In this document: one piece after another, positions 18,001 through 24,000 of the stretch | Layout: each line of letters begins with the position of its first letter | Position numbering within the stretch: position 1 is the first letter of the stretch | Assembly: GCA_963812015.1 (NCBI GenBank) | Contig: CAWETI010000003.1 | Span: 960,001-1,024,000 of the forward strand | Source of the DNA: an uncultured delta proteobacterium | GTDB lineage: Bacteria > Desulfobacterota > Desulfobaccia > Desulfobaccales > 0-14-0-80-60-11 | DNA: 64,000 nt | Direction of reading: 5' to 3' | Program-made: the position numbers

Positions 18001-21000
18001 AAGATCTACGTCGGCGGGGAGCATCCGCATGAGTCCCAGAAGCCGGCGCCTCTTCCCTGGGAGGATTAATGGCGGCGCAAGCAAGCATTCACGCCACGGG
18101 TAAACGCAAGACCGCGATCGCGCGGGTCTATCTGCGTCCCGGCAATGGCCGGATTATCGTGAATCAGCGCGAGTTTGAAGACTACTTCCCCGGGGAGACC
18201 ACCCGGAACCTGGTGCGCAAGCCCCTGCTCCTGGTGAACGTCGGCCCGGAGTTCGACATTCTGGTCAATGTCCGGGGCGGCGGCCTGGAAGGCCAGGCCG
18301 GGGCCGTCAAACACGCCCTGAGCCGGGCCCTGGTGGTGCTCAACCCGGAACTGCGTCCCATCCTGAAAAAGGCCGGTTTTCTCACCCGGGACGCCCGCAT
18401 CAAAGAGCGGAAGAAATACGGCCTCCGGGGCGCCCGCCGCGGCTGTCAGTATTCGAAACGGTAATTAATGAGGATTTTGGGGGAGGGGGCTAAGGGCGCC
18501 AGCCCTTACCCCCTCCCCCGAGCCCCCTCCCCCAATCCCTTACAGGGGGTTGGGAGGAGAGGTTGAGGGGAGAGCGGGGGAACTGCCTTCCCCCGGCCCT
18601 CCCCTCAAAGTTTTATATCCAATACCATGACCAAAATCCGCGTCGCAGTCATCGGGGCTTCCGGTTATGCCGGGTTGGAGTTGGTGCGCCTGTTGGTGCG
18701 GCATCCGGGTTGCGAGCTCGCAGCCCTCACCTCCCTGGAATACCCCGGCCGGCCTTTCTCCCAGATCTTTCCGGCCCTGGCCGGTATTGTCGACTTGCCC
18801 TTCAGCCAGGACCCGACCCCCGAGAAAATTGCGGCTGCCGCCGAAGTGGTCTTCACCGCGGTGCCCCATCAAACCGCCATGGGCATGATCCCTACTTTCC
18901 TGGCCCAGGGGTGCAGAGTGGTGGACCTGAGCGCGGATTTTCGCTTCCGGGATGTCAGCCTCTATGAGAAGTGGTATCAGGCGCATACGGCGCCGGAGTT
19001 GAACGCCGAGGCGGTGTATGGCCTGCCCGAACTGCACCGGGAAGAGGTGCGCCGGACGCGCCTGGTGGGCAACCCCGGCTGCTATCCCACGTGCGTCATC
19101 CTGGGGTTAGCGCCTCTGGCCAAAGCCGGCTTGCTTGCGCCCCATTCGGTGATTGCCGATTGCAAATCCGGGACGAGCGGCGCCGGACGCCAGGCCCTGT
19201 TGGGCATCTCGTTCTGTGAAGTCAATGACGGCTTCCGGGCTTACAAAGTGCTGGAGCACCGGCATACCCCCGAGATGGAGCAGGAGCTGAGCTGGCTGGC
19301 CGGCACAGCGGTTAAAGTCACCTTTACCCCGCATCTCGTTCCCATGAGCCGGGGCATCCTGGGAACGCTGTACGCCAACTTGACGGCGCCCCGGACCGAG
19401 GGGGAACTCCGGGAACTCTACGAAAAATTCTTTCAGGGCCATCCCTTTGTGCGCCTCCATCCGCCGGGGAGTCTTCCCGATACCCGGGACGTACGGGGCG
19501 GGAATTTCTGCGATCTGGCCCTCAGGGTGGATCGGGAAAGCCAGCGGGTCATTGTCATTTCGGCCATCGACAACCTCACCAAGGGGGCGGCCGGCCAGGC
19601 GGTGCACAACTTCAACCTGATGATGGGTTTCCCCGAAACCACCGGGTTGGACGTGGTGCCTTTTGTCCCTTAAAAGGAGGGGCGAAAAGGGGAAAAGGGA
19701 AAAAGGCGAAAAGGGGAAAAACCAAAGGAGGTTTTTTTACTAGCGAGTGCCGAAAGTTTTTTCCGTTATGCCGCATGCGCCAGTACCTAAATCCCCCCTA
19801 CCCCCCTTTACCAAAGGGAGGAACTTAGCGGAACCCCTTTTAAAGTCCCCCTTTGAAAAAGGGAGATTTAGGGGGATTTAAAAACCAGCAATCGGACGGA
19901 ATTTTTAGCAAACGCGATAACCTATCCGTTTCGCCTTTTCCCACCTGGCAATTTTCTGATTTTCCCCCGGGAATAACCATCGCGCATGGACCTTCGAAGA
20001 AACATCCGCCTCCTCCTGGAGTACGACGGCACCCGTTATCACGGGTGGCAGCGCCAGGCGGATACCCTGACGATTCAGGAGGTGCTGGAAGCGGCGGTGG
20101 CGCGGCTGACGGGGGAAGGGATCGCCCTCATCGGCTCGGGGCGCACCGACGCCGGGGTTCACGCCCTGGGCCAGGTGGCCAATTTCCGCACCATAAGCGC
20201 CATCCCCCTCAAGGCTTTTCATCAAGGCTTGAACTCCCTGCTCCCCAAAGACATCGCGGTGCTGGAGGCAAGTGAAGCGCCGCCGGAGTTTCACGCCCGG
20301 AAATCGGCCTGGGCCAAGACCTATGAGTACCGTATCCTCAACCGCCCCACACGCTCACCCCTTTATCACCACTACGCCTGGTGGATCGACCCGCCCCTGG
20401 ACCTGGTCGCCATGGCCGGGGCCGCCGCGGCTCTACCGGGTGAGCATGATTTTACCGCCTTCAGGGCCAGCGGCAGCGACAATCAAAATCCCGTGCGCCG
20501 GGTGCTGGCGGCTGATTGGCGTGACTTTCCCGGGGGGTGGCTGAGTTTTAGCATCACCGGGACCGGGTTCTTACGGGGCATGGTGCGGAGCCTGGTGGGC
20601 ACCATGGCGGATGTCGGCAAGGGCAAGGCGGCTCCGGAGTTGCTGGCGGAGTTGCTCAAGAGCGGCGAGCGCCACCTGGCCGGACCCACGGCGCCGCCCC
20701 AGGGGCTCTATCTGGTGGAAGTGAGGTATTGAGGTCAGGGGCCTCGGCGCCAGATAGCCGCGCATGCAGGCTCCATGGAATAAATTTAGGTCAAGGCTTC
20801 GCTTGGTCTTCCCTCCCAAAAAGATTGTGATATAATTCGCTATGCCTGGACCGCAGCACGTGGAGCCTGCCCCCGCGGTCCCCAAGGATCATATGGAAGC
20901 CGACCAGCCCCAACCCGACGCCGAATCTAAACCGGAACTGAATATCATTCAGGCCATCGAGCTGGCCATCGCCCATGAGACCGAGGCCCGGAAGAGCTAT

Positions 21001-24000
21001 CTGTCCCTGTCCCAGGAGACCGACGATCTAGAGCTCAGGACCCTCCTGAAAGAAATCGCCATGGAAGAGGCCAGCCATGAGGCGTCGCTCCGGAGCCGCC
21101 TGCGCCTCTACCAGGAGCGGCACGTGCTCCGGGACACCTTCTCCCGTTATGTGAGTCCGGAGTTGTGCGAAGAGATCTTGAAGAATCCGGGGCTGCTGGC
21201 CCTGGGGGGGCGGCGCCAGCAGGTGACGGTGCTCTTTGCCGATATCCGCAATTTTACCAGCATGTCGGAATCCCTGGCCCCGGAAGCCGTGGTGGAGGTG
21301 CTCAACACCTATTTTACCGCGATGGTGGATTTGGTATTTCACTATCAGGGGACCCTGGATAAGTTTGTGGGAGATGCCCTGATGGCGGTGTTCGGGGTGC
21401 CGCTGCCCCTCCCCCAGGCCGCGGACCGGGCGGTGGAATGCGCCCTGGCCATGCAGCGCCACCTGAGGCAGATGCAGGCCGCAGGTAAGACCCCCATTCA
21501 GGGCATGCGCATCGGTATCAACACTGGGGAGGCCATCGTGGGCAACATCGGCTCCGCCAAGCGCATGGACTTCACCGTGGTGGGGGACGCGGTCAACGTG
21601 GCCGCCCGGCTTCAGGAACTGGCCAAAGAGCTGGAAGCCGACACCCTCATCAGCGAGGCCACCTTTCGGGAACTGGGGGGGAAGTTTGAGGCGGCCCCCG
21701 AGCCCGCGGTGGTGCTGCGAGGTCGCAAGGAACCGACGCCCATCTATCGCCTCGAAGCTTGAGGCAGGAAAAGGCGCGGCTTCCCATGGTTGAGGCAAAA
21801 AAACGGGTTCGTGAAAAATGTTATTGACAAGTGTCGAGAGATGATTTATTGTGAGAATCTGGATAGCATGTGAATTTTTTCACATTATTCCTGTAACTTA
21901 CCCGTAACTTAAGTTTCTGACAAAAAACTCTTACAGCCCGAGGAGGGAAATAGATGGCTTTGGTAAACCCACACGGTAAAGAGAAGAAGTTAAAACCCTT
22001 ACTGCTTTCGCCGACTCAGATCGCCGAAGAAAAAAAGCGGGCCAAGGAATTGACGGTAGTCACCATGACCTCCCGGGAAACGGCCGACCTCATCATGATG
22101 GGGATCGGCGGCTTCACCCCCCTGGACGGTTTCATGGGCCACGATGACTGGAAAGGCTCCTGCAGCGATGCTATGAAGCTGACGGACGGCACCTTCTGGC
22201 CCATCCCCGTCACCATGTCCGTCAACCAGGGCAAAGCCGACTCCATCAAGGTCGGCCAGGAAGTGCTGCTGGTGGACGAAGAGACGGAAGAGATGATGGG
22301 GACCATGAAGGTCACCGAGAAGTACAAGGTTGACAAAAAGTGGGAATGCAAGCAGGTCTTCACCACCGATGAGATGGACCACCCGGGCGTGCAGATGGTC
22401 ATGGGCCAGGAAGCAGTCAACCTGGCGGGCACCGTCAAGGTCTGGAGTGAAGGCCCCTTTCCGAAACTGTATCCCGGTCTCTATATGCGGCCTTGGGAAA
22501 CCCGGAAGATGTTTGAGGACAAGGGCTGGAACACCATTGCCGCCCTGCAGCTCCGGAACCCCATGCACCGCTCCCACGAGTACCTGGCCAAGATTGCCAT
22601 CGAGGTCTGCGACGGCATTCTGATCCACCAGCTCCTGGGCAAACTGAAACCCGGCGACATCCCCGCGGAAGTGCGCACCGAGGCCATCAACGTCCTCACC
22701 CAGTACTACTTCGTGAAAGACACCAGCATCCAGTCCGGCTATCCCCTGGATATGCGCTATGCCGGTCCCCGGGAAGCGTTGTTCCACGCGGTGTTCCGCC
22801 AGAATTTCGGCTGCTCCCACCTGATCGTCGGCCGTGACCACGCCGGCGTGGGCGAGTACTACGGCCCCTTCGACGCCCAGAAGATCTTCACCACGATCCC
22901 CAAGGACGCCCTGGAGCTGAAACCCCTGAACATCGACTGGACCTTCTATTGCCACAAGTGCGACGGCATGGCCTCCATGCGCACCTGCTGCCACGGCAAG
23001 GAAGACCGCCTGATGCTGTCCGGCACCATGCTGCGCAAGATGCTGTCCGAAGACATGGAAGTGCCGGATCACTTCAGCCGCCCCGAAGTCCTGACCGTCC
23101 TCCGGAAGTATTACCGGGGCCTCACCGAGAAAGTGGAAGTCAAGGTGCACGGCTTCGCCACCGGCGACATCTCGGGGAAGAAAAAGTAGTGTAGAGTAAG
23201 GTGGTGCAGGGGCGGAAGCACTCTTCCGCCTCTCACCGCATAATGCAGGTATATAACAAGATAACTGCTTAACCCTAATGAGGAGGTTTTACGTTATGCC
23301 GAGTTTCGTAATCGTGGAAAAATGTGACGGCTGTAAAGCCCTGGACAAGACTGCTTGCCAGTACATCTGCCCCAATGACCTGATGGTCCTGGAACCCGAA
23401 CAAAAGAAGGCTTACAACCAGGAACCGGATCAGTGCTGGGAATGCTACAACTGCGTGAAGATCTGCCCCCAGCAGGCCATCGAAGTCCGCCACTATGCGG
23501 ACATCATGCCCCTGGGCTCCAGCACCATCCCGCTGCGCGGCAGCGACAACATCATGTGGACCATCAAATTCCGGGACCAGAAGACCATCAAGCGGTTCAA
23601 GTTCCCCATCCGGACCACGGCGGAAGGGTCCATCGATTGCTTCAAGGGCAAAACCTTGCCCACCGACATGGCCGGCCTGAAGAAACCCGGTTTCTACACC
23701 GGCGCGGCCCGCCCCGAGTAGTCTCCACCGCAGCGAAAATTTAAGGAGGACACTGAGATATGGCTCTGGAAAGAGAATTTTGTAAATGGTCTTTTTGTGC
23801 GAAACCGGAAGTAGTCACTGTTGAAACCGACCTGCTGCTGGTAGGCGGTGGCATGGCTTGCACCGGCGCCGCGGTTGAAGCATCTGCCTGGGCGAAAGCC
23901 GCCGGGCTGAAGGTCACCCTGGTTGACAAAGCCGCCCTGGATCGCTCCGGCGCGGTAGCTATGGGTCTGTCCGCCATCAACACCTACATCGGTTCGGAAA

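Follow-up and report, generated by a model that had tools for sequence, protein, structure and literature searches.

A soluble class III adenylate cyclase of Desulfobaccales with a predicted half-ferritin sensor and a probable role as an iron or redox switch

In the window, a 64,000-nt stretch of the genome of an uncultured member of Desulfobaccales, the gene directly 5′ of sat reads as a soluble class III cyclase of the adenylate type, in which half of a ferritin fold is the only sensor and the only domain besides the catalytic one. This N-terminal domain is probably an iron or redox switch. Our preferred reading, to which we assign a probability of about one half, is that a metal-dependent dimerisation switch, set by Fe2+ or by oxidation, acts on cAMP synthesis, and that sat is a neighbour with its own Rex-type control. 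The survey's finding had joined a half di-iron-type sensor on a class III cyclase to the control of sulfate reduction; the sensor cyclase stands, but the tie to sulfate reduction is not supported. The features of the cyclase gene are listed below.

20828..20836, + strand: predicted cyclase promoter, extended −10 box TGaTATAAT, read from the sequence, in a block (AAAGATTGTGATATAATTC) kept in relatives
20893..21762, + strand: cyclase coding sequence, 289 aa from the probable start (earlier open reading frame 20842..21762, 306 aa)
20944..21144, + strand: half-ferritin domain, EncFtn/rubrerythrin type (AF2, Pfam, NCBIfam, PDB profile, Foldseek)
20977..20979, + strand: Glu29 codon, predicted helix-1 metal ligand (conservation, EncFtn spacing, profile alignments)
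20998-21000, + strand: Tyr36 codon, aligned with the Tyr39 position of EncFtn
21067..21078, + strand: Glu59-Ala-Ser-His62 codons, ExxH predicted metal-ligand motif of helix 2 (conservation, EncFtn spacing)
21145..21210, + strand: residues 85-106, a linker with a short transducer helix that joins helix 2 to the catalytic domain (AF2)
21211..21753, + strand: residues 107-287, catalytic domain of class III cyclase type (Pfam PF00211, PDB, Foldseek, counts in 80 orthologues)

The survey had given the protein 306 aa. That reading frame is real, but translation probably starts at ATG 20893, which has a ribosome-binding site (AAGGA) 4 nt 5′ of it and yields 289 aa; 109 of the 120 closest database homologues are 285-295 aa long. 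The gene appears to be transcribed from an extended −10 promoter of its own, with a transcript start predicted at about 20843. When 12 upstream regions from the same genus were aligned, the block containing this box was conserved and the DNA on either side varied. The box is absent from our promoter consensus scan because it has no −35 match. The cyclase of close relatives was covered by contigs from three metatranscriptome runs in three studies, which is weak evidence for its transcription there.

In the 306-aa frame, Pfam again placed Rubrerythrin at residues 23-84 (E 3.4e-5; 24.7 bits, cut-off 22.8) and Guanylate_cyc at residues 125-298 (E 4.1e-30), as the survey had reported, and the HETEARKSY and MEEASHEAS stretches that it had pointed to are both in the translation. 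The Rubrerythrin match covers profile positions 74-134 of 137, which is the second half of the fold, and the Pfam Ferritin score was under its cut-off. A profile search of the PDB with the N-terminal domain returned 2fzf (4e-10), 2oh3 (7e-6), 5n5e (EncFtn, 2e-5), and 7s5k (EncB, 8e-5). In the AF2 model of the monomer (pLDDT 84.7; 92.5 in a second model), residues 18-42 form helix 1 and residues 46-84 form helix 2, and linker helices at 89-97 and 99-102 follow with pLDDT 66-77. The nine best Foldseek rows for this domain were EncFtn/EncB chains, headed by 5n5e, 7s5c, and 7s5k, with TMq of 0.72-0.82 and E-values of only 0.025-0.15.

Among 1.84 billion representative proteins, the N-terminal 103 aa matched 95 at E<=1e-3. 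Seventy-eight of these are 135-200 aa long, and each was matched twice by the query. The pattern E-x6-Y/F...E-x-x-H occurs in both halves of all 78, and the spacing between the two Glu residues is 30 in 154/168 motif sets of these full-length relatives, as it is from Glu29 to Glu59 of the cyclase. All seven full-length relatives tested belong to Pfam Rubrerythrin, and by sequence the N-terminal domain is closer to these two-half proteins of about 150 aa than to EncFtn. Judged from such matches, the half-ferritin similarity is no chance event, and the domain reads as two of the four helices of a di-iron bundle, a half that presumably binds metal. The sensor had been described as a two-helix half with one Glu and one ExxH, and this description held up; to it we add a Tyr that is also conserved and a spacing identical to that of EncFtn.

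The best solved matches by profile and by fold are EncFtn and EncB, and we compared the systems of R. rubrum (EncFtn, 5da5), P. furiosus (5n5e), and M. xanthus (EncB/EncC; 7s5c, 7s5k, and 7s8t). In EncFtn, two chains contribute Glu32, Tyr39, Glu62, and His65 to the ferroxidase centre, whose assembly depends on metal (PMC5012862), which provides a solved precedent for the pairing of half-sites proposed here. EncFtn and the cyclase share a two-helix unit, and residues 32/39/62/65 of the former have the same spacing as 29/36/59/62 of the latter, including the 30 positions from Glu to Glu. Unlike EncFtn, the hairpin shares its chain with a cyclase, has no targeting peptide, and occurs in a genome with no encapsulin shell gene. 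The NCBIfam scores on the N-terminal domain (EncB_fam, E 1.2e-7; TIGR04535, E 2.1e-5) are also far below the family cut-offs (31.8 vs 90). The third helix of EncFtn has no counterpart, because helix 2 continues straight toward the cyclase in the AF2 model.

The catalytic domain matched 6fht, 2w01, and 3r5g in the PDB, and the alignments revealed a full set of six catalytic residues, as in cyclases of the adenylate (Lys/Asp) type: Asp117 and Asp161 for metal, Lys157 and Asp226 for adenine, and Asn235 and Arg239 for the transition state. The Lys aligns with a Glu of the guanylate cyclase Cya2 (2w01) and with the Lys of the engineered adenylate form (6fht). From the Lys/Asp pair, we predict cAMP as the product. 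We compared the protein with the class III cyclases Cya2 (2w01), CyaB (3r5g), CyaC (1wc1), the BLUF cyclases bPAC/OaPAC, and the phytochrome-cyclase 6fht. Its catalytic domain is 36-40% identical to those of class III adenylate cyclases (rmsd 2.5-2.7 Å), with which it has all six catalytic residues in common, and a long helix runs into the catalytic domain as in 6fht and bPAC. In contrast to these enzymes, the sensor is a half-ferritin; no description of such a sensor on a cyclase was found in the literature searched, in agreement with the survey's view that a di-iron input domain on a cyclase would be new.

Non-haem di-iron centres are used as signalling inputs by Bhr-DGC of Vibrio cholerae, which is a nucleotide cyclase but belongs to a different class, and by DcrH, the chemoreceptor of a sulfate reducer, Desulfovibrio (PMC9388753). 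However, a single hemerythrin chain forms the complete four-helix bundle, with ligands rich in His, whereas the cyclase has half a bundle; the two also differ in fold family, ligand set, and output domain. The available part of this review of hemerythrin sensors contains neither the word rubrerythrin nor ferritin (PMC9388753).

The fusion is single-copy and full-length in 80/83 Desulfobaccales genomes and in 17/17 genera, and a sample of 386 other genomes of the phylum gave no strong match; the fusion forms only three 50%-identity clusters in the 1.84-billion-protein library. Among the 80 orthologues, counting those with a residue at the column concerned, Glu29, Tyr36, and Glu59 are conserved in 78/78 and His62 in 78/79; the relatives' cyclases carry the same N-terminus, a point that the survey had left to be checked. 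The catalytic residues are similarly kept (Asp117, Lys157, and Asp161, 79/79 each; Asp226, 78/80; Asn235, 77/78; Arg239, 78/78). The invariance of the four N-terminal residues is weaker evidence than it appears, because the family is shallow (63-100% identity of the domain across the order) and a large part of both helices is invariant besides them. PF00211 was found at 13 places in the genome and PF00027, the cNMP-binding domain, at 6, the same numbers of cyclases and cNMP-binding proteins as counted earlier.

In the mechanism that we propose, two hairpins, the N-terminal 70 residues of each chain, would pair into a four-helix bundle holding two iron ions through Glu29, Glu59, and His62 of each chain, and Tyr36 would be a second-shell residue. 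The ferroxidase-centre interface of EncFtn does not form without bound Fe2+ (or Zn2+/Co2+) (PMC5012862), and metal occupancy is therefore proposed as the switch of the cyclase. Occupancy, or its loss or change by oxidation, would set the placement of the two long second helices; this position would be passed through the near-invariant LRSRLRLY (residues 66-73, ahead of the linker) and the short transducer helix to the catalytic domains, switching cAMP synthesis. The cyclase may respond to labile Fe2+, to the oxidation of this iron by O2 or H2O2, or to both, and the evidence fits the sensing of iron, O2, H2O2, or NO alike. Metal binding, hairpin pairing, coupling to catalysis, and the nature of the signal are all inferred.

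The geometry of EncFtn raises a difficulty for pairing within one cyclase dimer. The EncFtn bundle is antiparallel, and therefore the second helices of paired hairpins would leave in opposite directions, so that the 22-residue linker would need to reunite the two chains in a single cyclase dimer, unless the site lies between dimers. Pairing of the halves inside the parallel cyclase dimer would thus fit awkwardly. It is conceivable, though improbable, that half-sites pair between cyclase dimers and that iron drives the formation of rings or chains like the EncFtn decamers, or that the domain is a ferroxidase or peroxidase and no sensor. The ferroxidase-centre dimer of EncFtn is antiparallel within its decamer (PMC5012862), a pairing easier between dimers than inside one, and the nearest full-length relatives are Rubrerythrin-family proteins; however, no encapsulin shell gene was found in this 99.86% complete genome, the helix that builds the other EncFtn interface is missing, and the cyclase sequence contains no rubredoxin-like Cys motifs.

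We consider it similarly unlikely that the hairpin, of ferritin-like descent, binds no metal and serves as a dimerisation or coiled-coil scaffold on a cyclase that is otherwise regulated or constitutive. Almost all of both helices is invariant beyond the ligands, the Pfam and NCBIfam scores are marginal, and class III cyclases need a dimer and commonly have helical N-terminal linkers (fold matches 6fht and bPAC/OaPAC). Against this, the acidic residues and the His that each chain keeps at precisely the spacing of the ferroxidase centre, in 78/78 or 78/79 orthologues, would be buried charges if no metal were bound, the same residues of EncFtn repel one another when iron is absent (PMC5012862), and the second-shell Tyr is kept as well.

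The features that bear on the neighbouring sulfate-reduction genes are as follows.

21824..21852, + strand: predicted sat promoter TTGACA-17-TATTGT, 10/12 consensus matches, kept in 12 relatives whose intergenic DNA was aligned
21868..21885, no strand: candidate Rex-type operator ATGTGAAttttTTCACAT, perfect TGTGA-N6-TCACA, conserved in relatives
21954..23189, + strand: sat (PUA_2 and ATP-sulfurylase, Pfam), a neighbour of the cyclase, functional coupling not implied
23278..30536, + strand: aprB, aprA, qmoA, qmoB, and qmoC (Pfam), context only

Pfam bore out the gene order that the survey had given from the cyclase to qmoC, with truA in front of the cyclase and all genes on the + strand. The survey had further proposed that oxygen or oxidative stress is the signal read by the di-iron cyclase and that its cNMP output controls the adjoining genes for sulfate activation and APS reduction. 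In favour of this, the cyclase is directly 5′ of sat in 64/80 orthologue loci of the order, with 4 further loci ending at contig ends, and it keeps this position in 12 loci that hold a second sat type, 26-31% identical. The count resembles the 57-58 of 82 genomes recorded earlier for the order; the 401-404 genomes recorded overall were not reproduced, and none of 60 sat loci sampled elsewhere in the phylum had a cyclase domain within 3 kb, in a search whose HMM control recovered 22/22 diverse cyclases. All cyclase-sat adjacencies fall in one family of Desulfobaccales, whereas the second family keeps the cyclase and has sat elsewhere in 12/12 assessable loci. The position ahead of sat is a lineage-specific neighbourhood.

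The sat gene appears to be transcribed from its own promoter, the sole promoter-like site in a consensus scan of 20600-22100, under a Rex-type operator centred about 17 nt 3′ of the predicted transcript start. No terminator-like site was found between the cyclase and sat, so read-through may occur, which also speaks for control by cNMP. In the relatives' intergenic alignment, the operator arms are invariant and the centre is variable; in the 64 cyclase-sat spacers, 47 operators are perfect and 14 have one mismatch. The palindrome, ATGTGAA-N4-TTCACAT, also matches the CRP-type half-sites TGTGA-N6-TCACA, and such sites before sat and apsAB were first assigned to a CRP/FNR-family factor by Rodionov et al. 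2004 (PMC545781). However, it matches the longer Rex consensus TTGTGAANNNNTTCACAA, TGTGAA-N4-TTCACA (PMC6391272), and Rex, a repressor that senses NADH (NADH/NAD+), is encoded in this genome and in 78/83 genomes of the order. The genome has only two CRP/FNR-type regulators, and we found no CRP-type regulator whose recognition helix would match; aligned by eye to what we take to be the CRP helix, the two carry Ser or Gln at the place of Arg180. In CRP, Arg180 reads the G of TGTGA (PMC545781). With its own promoter and Rex-type operator before sat, no such Arg in the two regulators, and adjacency in one family, no sign of cAMP-dependent control of sat is visible, and we regard cNMP control of the sulfate-reduction genes as very doubtful.

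The arrangement before sat resembles that of Desulfovibrio vulgaris Hildenborough, in which Rex represses sat through a site 5′ of the gene (PMC7531388). In both, a TTGTGAANNNNTTCACAA-type inverted repeat is placed at the sat promoter where a repressor would act, and both have a Rex gene. The two differ in phylogenetic order, and the operator here is predicted and has its outer bases A/T-swapped (ATGTGAA...TTCACAT). The second family of Desulfobaccales has a symmetric variant of the palindrome, TCGTG...CACGA, ahead of sat.

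The open reading frame at 20842..21762 on the forward strand, which the survey's finding had described as a 306-aa nucleotide cyclase carrying half of a rubrerythrin, was present, and its translation was indeed 306 aa. Pfam searches recovered both domains (306-aa numbering), a class III cyclase at residues 125-298 (E 4.1e-30) and a Rubrerythrin match at residues 23-84; the latter scored 24.7 bits against a curated cut-off of 22.8 and covered only profile positions 74-134 of 137. The true start is probably the ATG at 20893, giving 289 aa in place of 306. AAGGA lies 4 nt 5' of this ATG, and 109 of the 120 closest database homologues are 285-295 aa long; the 289-aa form sets the residue numbering from here on. 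A perfect extended -10 box ends a block that is kept within the genus, with variable DNA around it, and from its position the cyclase transcript would start at about 20843. By Pfam assignment, the gene order on this strand was rplM, rpsI, semialdehyde dehydrogenase, truA, cyclase, sat, aprB, aprA, qmoA, qmoB and qmoC. The 13 cyclase-domain places and six cNMP-binding places reported for the genome were also found again. The features of the window used in this analysis are as follows.

9295-9798 (-), another cyclase-domain match, a weak one (E 2e-7, 31.8 bits), inside a 344-aa open frame
20825-20840, the cyclase -10 region, TTGTGATATAATTCGC
20828-20836, the extended -10 box of the cyclase, TGaTATAAT
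20842..21762 (+), the cyclase open reading frame, with the probable start ATG at 20893
21824-21852, the sat promoter, TTGACA-17-TATTGT
21868-21885, the palindrome before sat, ATGTGAAttttTTCACAT
31272-32075, a CxxCxxCC (PF03692) gene, 3' of qmoC
32245-32670, a CoA_binding_2 gene, 3' of qmoC

The catalytic part is a member of the class III nucleotidyl cyclase family. It matched PF00211 with 105.2 bits against a curated cut-off of 21.9, and a PDB search gave 6fht, 2w01 and 3r5g as the nearest solved relatives (E 4e-39 to 2e-33); 2w01 is Cya2 of Synechocystis, 6fht its phytochrome-fused engineered form and 3r5g CyaB of P. aeruginosa. The AF2 model of the cyclase (pLDDT 84.7) superposed on solved relatives at 2.5-2.7 A. 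The six canonical positions are filled by Asp117, Asp161, Lys157, Asp226, Asn235 and Arg239; from the PDB alignments, we take Asp117 and Asp161 to bind metal and Asn235 and Arg239 to serve the transition state. These residues were conserved among 80 orthologues (D117, K157 and D161 79/79 each, N235 77/78, R239 78/78 and D226 78/80). At the alignment column of Lys157, the guanylate cyclase Cya2 (2w01) has Glu and its adenylate-converted form 6fht has Lys. The predicted adenine-specifying Lys/Asp pair is present, as opposed to the Glu/Cys type for GTP, and because residues of the Lys157/Asp226 type are present and kept, the product is predicted to be cAMP. A Foldseek search with the full-length model returned cyclases only.

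The N-terminal domain was searched separately by sequence and by structure. With residues 1-103 as the query, 95 matches were obtained at E<=1e-3 among 1.84 billion representatives, and 78 of them were proteins of 135-200 aa that were each matched twice, one match per half. In all 78, Glu-x6-Tyr/Phe...Glu-x-x-His occurs in each half, with a Glu-to-Glu distance of 30 in 154 of the 168 motif sets of these two-half relatives, and the seven two-half relatives tested all belonged to Pfam Rubrerythrin. The cyclase protein holds exactly one motif set, Glu29, Tyr36, Glu59 and His62. A profile of 40 such N-terminal domains, run against the PDB, first matched PF1190-like 2fzf (4e-10, in two separate stretches) and 2oh3 (7e-6), next the two-helix encapsulated ferritins 5n5e (2e-5), 7s5k (8e-5), 2e0z and 7s5c, and after these sulerythrins, symerythrin and designed di-iron helix-loop-helix proteins. 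The AF2 model of residues 14-86 is a helical hairpin (pLDDT 92.5), for which the nine best Foldseek rows were all chains of the encapsulated ferritins EncFtn or EncB (TMq 0.72-0.82), with E-values of 0.025-0.13 that are weak, as expected for so small a fold. EncB superposed on the hairpin with an rmsd of 0.5 A across 54 residues. The N-terminal domain is thus a real relative, and a half, of the di-iron four-helix bundles. A 38% identical "full-length" match, L022, was rejected as a relative of this domain, as it is a GAF-cyclase away from sat. In another genome of the order, a 270-aa protein (L125:945-1757, +) carries a rhodanese fused to a complete two-half Rubrerythrin-family domain.

The domain was compared with the two ferritin-like families closest to it. 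It contains the Glu and Glu-x-x-His ligands of PF02915 (E29 and E59-x-x-H62), but it consists of two helices only and thus falls outside the one-chain four-helix definition of rubrerythrin; the cyclase translation also has no CxxC pairs of the rubredoxin-like Cys4 domain of true rubrerythrins. Like the monomer of encapsulated ferritins, the hairpin is a two-helix unit with Glu, Tyr and Glu-x-x-His at the spacing of a ferroxidase centre. In EncFtn, Glu32, Tyr39, Glu62 and His65 of two chains form this centre within an antiparallel four-helix bundle (PMC5012862), and their spacing is identical to that of Glu29, Tyr36, Glu59 and His62. The cyclase sensor may work alike, yet it is not a member of the family, as it has neither a shell partner nor a targeting peptide and scores below the family cut-offs. 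With the encapsulated-ferritin models TIGR04535 and NF058679, the NCBIfam results were E 1.2e-7 and 31.8 bits for EncB_fam (cut-off 90) and E 2.1e-5 and 24.5 bits for TIGR04535 (cut-off 125). The C-terminus of the hairpin runs into the cyclase. No PF04454 match to an encapsulin shell gene was found in the 99.86% complete genome, and therefore the hairpin is not encapsulin cargo.

The N-terminal query matched 81 of the 83 genomes of the order Desulfobaccales, including 58/58 high-quality genomes and 17/17 genera, with one full-length copy per matched genome. The weak match in one of these 81 genomes, G024, was rejected as an orthologue because it is a rhodanese-rubrerythrin protein, leaving an orthologue in 80/83 genomes; the three genomes lacking one are 56%, 73% and 84% complete. 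The orthologue of genome G015 (L124, G015:C1:281677-281968) comes as two pieces that overlap and lie in different frames, through a frameshift or an assembly error. In a phylum sample of 401 genomes, the fused cyclase was present in all 15 genomes from the order, and the other 386 gave no match better than E 4e-6; weak matches in 36 of these were mostly small ferritin-like frames. Within the representative library, the domain was joined to a cyclase in only three clusters, two of which look chimeric or truncated. Among those of the 80 aligned orthologues that have a residue at the position, Glu29, Tyr36 and Glu59 are kept in 78/78 rows each and His62 in 78/79. The family is shallow, with 63-100% identity in the N-terminal domain and both helices mostly invariant, so this conservation supports the di-iron reading and does not prove it.

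Class III cyclases are modular, and a handful of input domains (BLUF, phytochrome, HAMP and GAF) has supplied much of the knowledge on how a sensor drives them. Synthesis of cAMP requires a correctly assembled dimer. We propose, with a probability of roughly 0.4, that the half-ferritin switches a class III adenylate cyclase through metal-dependent dimerisation, which would make it the first di-iron-carboxylate sensor in cyclic-nucleotide signalling, encoded by a single-copy core gene of the order, and that its cAMP reports labile Fe2+ (removed by the cells' own sulfide), Fe2+ oxidation, or both. Two hairpins would pair into a four-helix bundle in which each chain contributes Glu29, Glu59 and His62 to the binding of two metal ions. 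How the two long second helices stand to each other would depend on the metal occupancy of this site or on its oxidation state. These helices would connect to the catalytic domains by way of LRSRLRLY (residues 66-73), a stretch that is near-invariant among the orthologues, and a short helix (89-97); movement of the helices would then switch cAMP synthesis. The EncFtn study describes assembly that depends on Fe2+, Zn2+ or Co2+ (PMC5012862). Because the EncFtn interface forms only with metal bound, Fe2+ availability would be a natural signal, and O2 or H2O2 is equally possible given the ferroxidase chemistry of the family. The main structural doubt concerns geometry: an EncFtn-type bundle is antiparallel, so that the two helix-2 ends would point apart. 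The 22-residue linker would then have to fold back for both chains to meet in one cyclase dimer, unless the site is built between dimers.

The protein belongs with the sensor-linked class III cyclases and would work likewise. Its nearest functional analogues are hemerythrin-domain sensors, which have another fold and ligand set (PMC9388753). No description of a half-ferritin-cyclase fusion was found in a full-text literature search; the half-ferritin cyclase is undescribed and joins to a known enzyme an input domain that is new. If the proposed switch is true, a split di-iron bundle of 70 residues would give cyclases a chemically defined input of very small size, and the protein would be easy to test because its solved homologue EncFtn already shows iron-dependent pairing. 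It would also open a first way into cAMP signalling in sulfate reducers, where it is unstudied, and might show how these cells sense iron or oxidants.

The sat gene directly follows the cyclase in 64 of the 80 loci of the order. These comprise 52 loci with an orthologous sat and 12 with a second-type sat (L066, L069, L076, L082, L085, L100, L103, L104, L112, L120, L122 and L123) that is 26-31% identical to the sat of the window and again has PUA_2 and ATP-sulfurylase domains. Four loci are interrupted by contig ends. The remaining 12 have no adjacent sat and all lie in the second family of the order, where the cyclase neighbours vary (PNP_UDP_1, TrmO, DUF3786 and SAICAR synthetase) and sat was located elsewhere in 5/5 genomes checked. 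Outside the order, 3 kb on either side of sat were screened in 60 genomes of the phylum sample (sat 52-70% identical), and the cyclase HMM found no cyclase in these 60 loci, even at E<=1; as a control, the same HMM recovered 22/22 diverse cyclases, and in the own genome 12 frames against 13 PF00211 places. A cyclase next to sat in about 400 genomes, as had been counted before, could not be reproduced within this phylum (0/60 sat loci outside the order). The adjacency is a trait of one family and may have a single origin, and by itself it says little on function. At one second-family locus, L087, a CxxCxxCC and CoA_binding_2 pair like that 3' of qmoC lies directly upstream of the cyclase, its first gene being 48% identical; the pair was not seen beside the cyclase at the other second-family loci examined (L074, L101 and L119). 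That the sat-apr-qmo block sits within an older neighbourhood is too thin a reading to build on.

The spacer between the cyclase and sat is 191 bp, and the sat promoter is the only promoter-like site of the region. The palindrome ATGTGAAttttTTCACAT lies about 17 nt after the predicted sat transcript start. Aligned relatives share an invariant promoter and two invariant palindrome arms, whereas the palindrome centre and the flanking DNA vary. Across the 64 cyclase-sat spacers, TGTGAA-N4-TTCACA was perfect in 47, had one mismatch in 14 and two in 2, and was missing from 1; 61/64 spacers thus have it at <=1 mismatch. The second-type sat likewise has a Rex-like palindrome upstream.

The initial reading of this element was a cAMP-CRP site (TGTGA-N6-TCACA) linking the cyclase to sat. 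For sites of this kind ahead of sat and apsAB, Rodionov et al. 2004 had named HcpR, a CRP/FNR-family factor, and they paired recognition-helix Arg180 with the G of TGTGA (PMC545781). The own genome encodes only two CRP/FNR-type proteins, with the helices ...SETLSR... and ...QQTVSE...; aligned by eye, both have Ser or Gln in place of this Arg, and two further HTH_Crp_2 matches are GntR-like. The 18-bp palindrome fits the Rex consensus TTGTGAANNNNTTCACAA (as given in extracts of PMC6391272) near a promoter, and the genome holds a Rex gene with the Put_DNA-bind_N and CoA_binding architecture; Rex was found in 78/83 genomes of the order. The CRP-site reading was rejected because the longer Rex consensus fits, the genome encodes Rex and the search for a CRP-type helix found none. 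The sat gene of D. vulgaris is under repression by Rex, which acts at an upstream site, and sat transcripts are about 11-fold up without Rex and 4.6-fold up without the site, according to the passages of PMC7531388 that cite Christensen et al. 2015. The predicted operator would extend this Desulfovibrio Rex-sat link to another order, as a new instance of a known link.

The case for the operator rests on conservation, because rarity alone proves nothing. Perfect TGTGA-N6-TCACA sites numbered 2 genome-wide against 2.4 expected from composition, and at <=1 mismatch the window holds 3 against 0.9 expected, a number reached in 5/100 shuffles. Genome-wide there are 10 Rex-like sites at <=1 mismatch, that of sat among them. 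In 60 sat upstream regions from outside the order, the mismatch counts of the best sites were not clearly different from a within-gene control. The conserved sat element speaks for Rex and its sensing of NADH/NAD+, and not for cAMP. The earlier interpretation is supported in part: the half-ferritin cyclase is real and order-wide, whereas cyclic-nucleotide control of dissimilatory sulfate reduction finds no support in the sequence, and the present finding gives no evidence for it.

In the second family, 4/5 genomes checked (loci L139-L142) have a symmetric variant palindrome, TCGTGCTA...TTCACGA, 190-400 nt upstream of sat, altered symmetrically at the second base of its two arms. This variant may reflect a lineage-specific shift of operator and regulator specificity. 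At the cyclase itself, the -10 region contains a perfect left Rex half-site and a poor right half (3/12 mismatches); a weak Rex site is one possibility, plain promoter the other.

Metatranscriptome contigs from three runs of three studies map onto the cyclase of close relatives, a weak sign that the gene is expressed there. One contig of run X2 and one of run X1 cross the cyclase-sat spacer, and run X4 covers sat only; contigs of this kind carry no transcript ends and could stem from DNA. Transcription from the cyclase promoter could read through into sat, since no terminator-like site was found between the two genes. Elsewhere in the own genome, outside the window, C3:1553914-1555353 encodes a 479-aa protein that combines cNMP-binding, rhodanese and MauE/DoxX membrane domains and may be a cyclic-nucleotide receptor with a link to sulfur chemistry.
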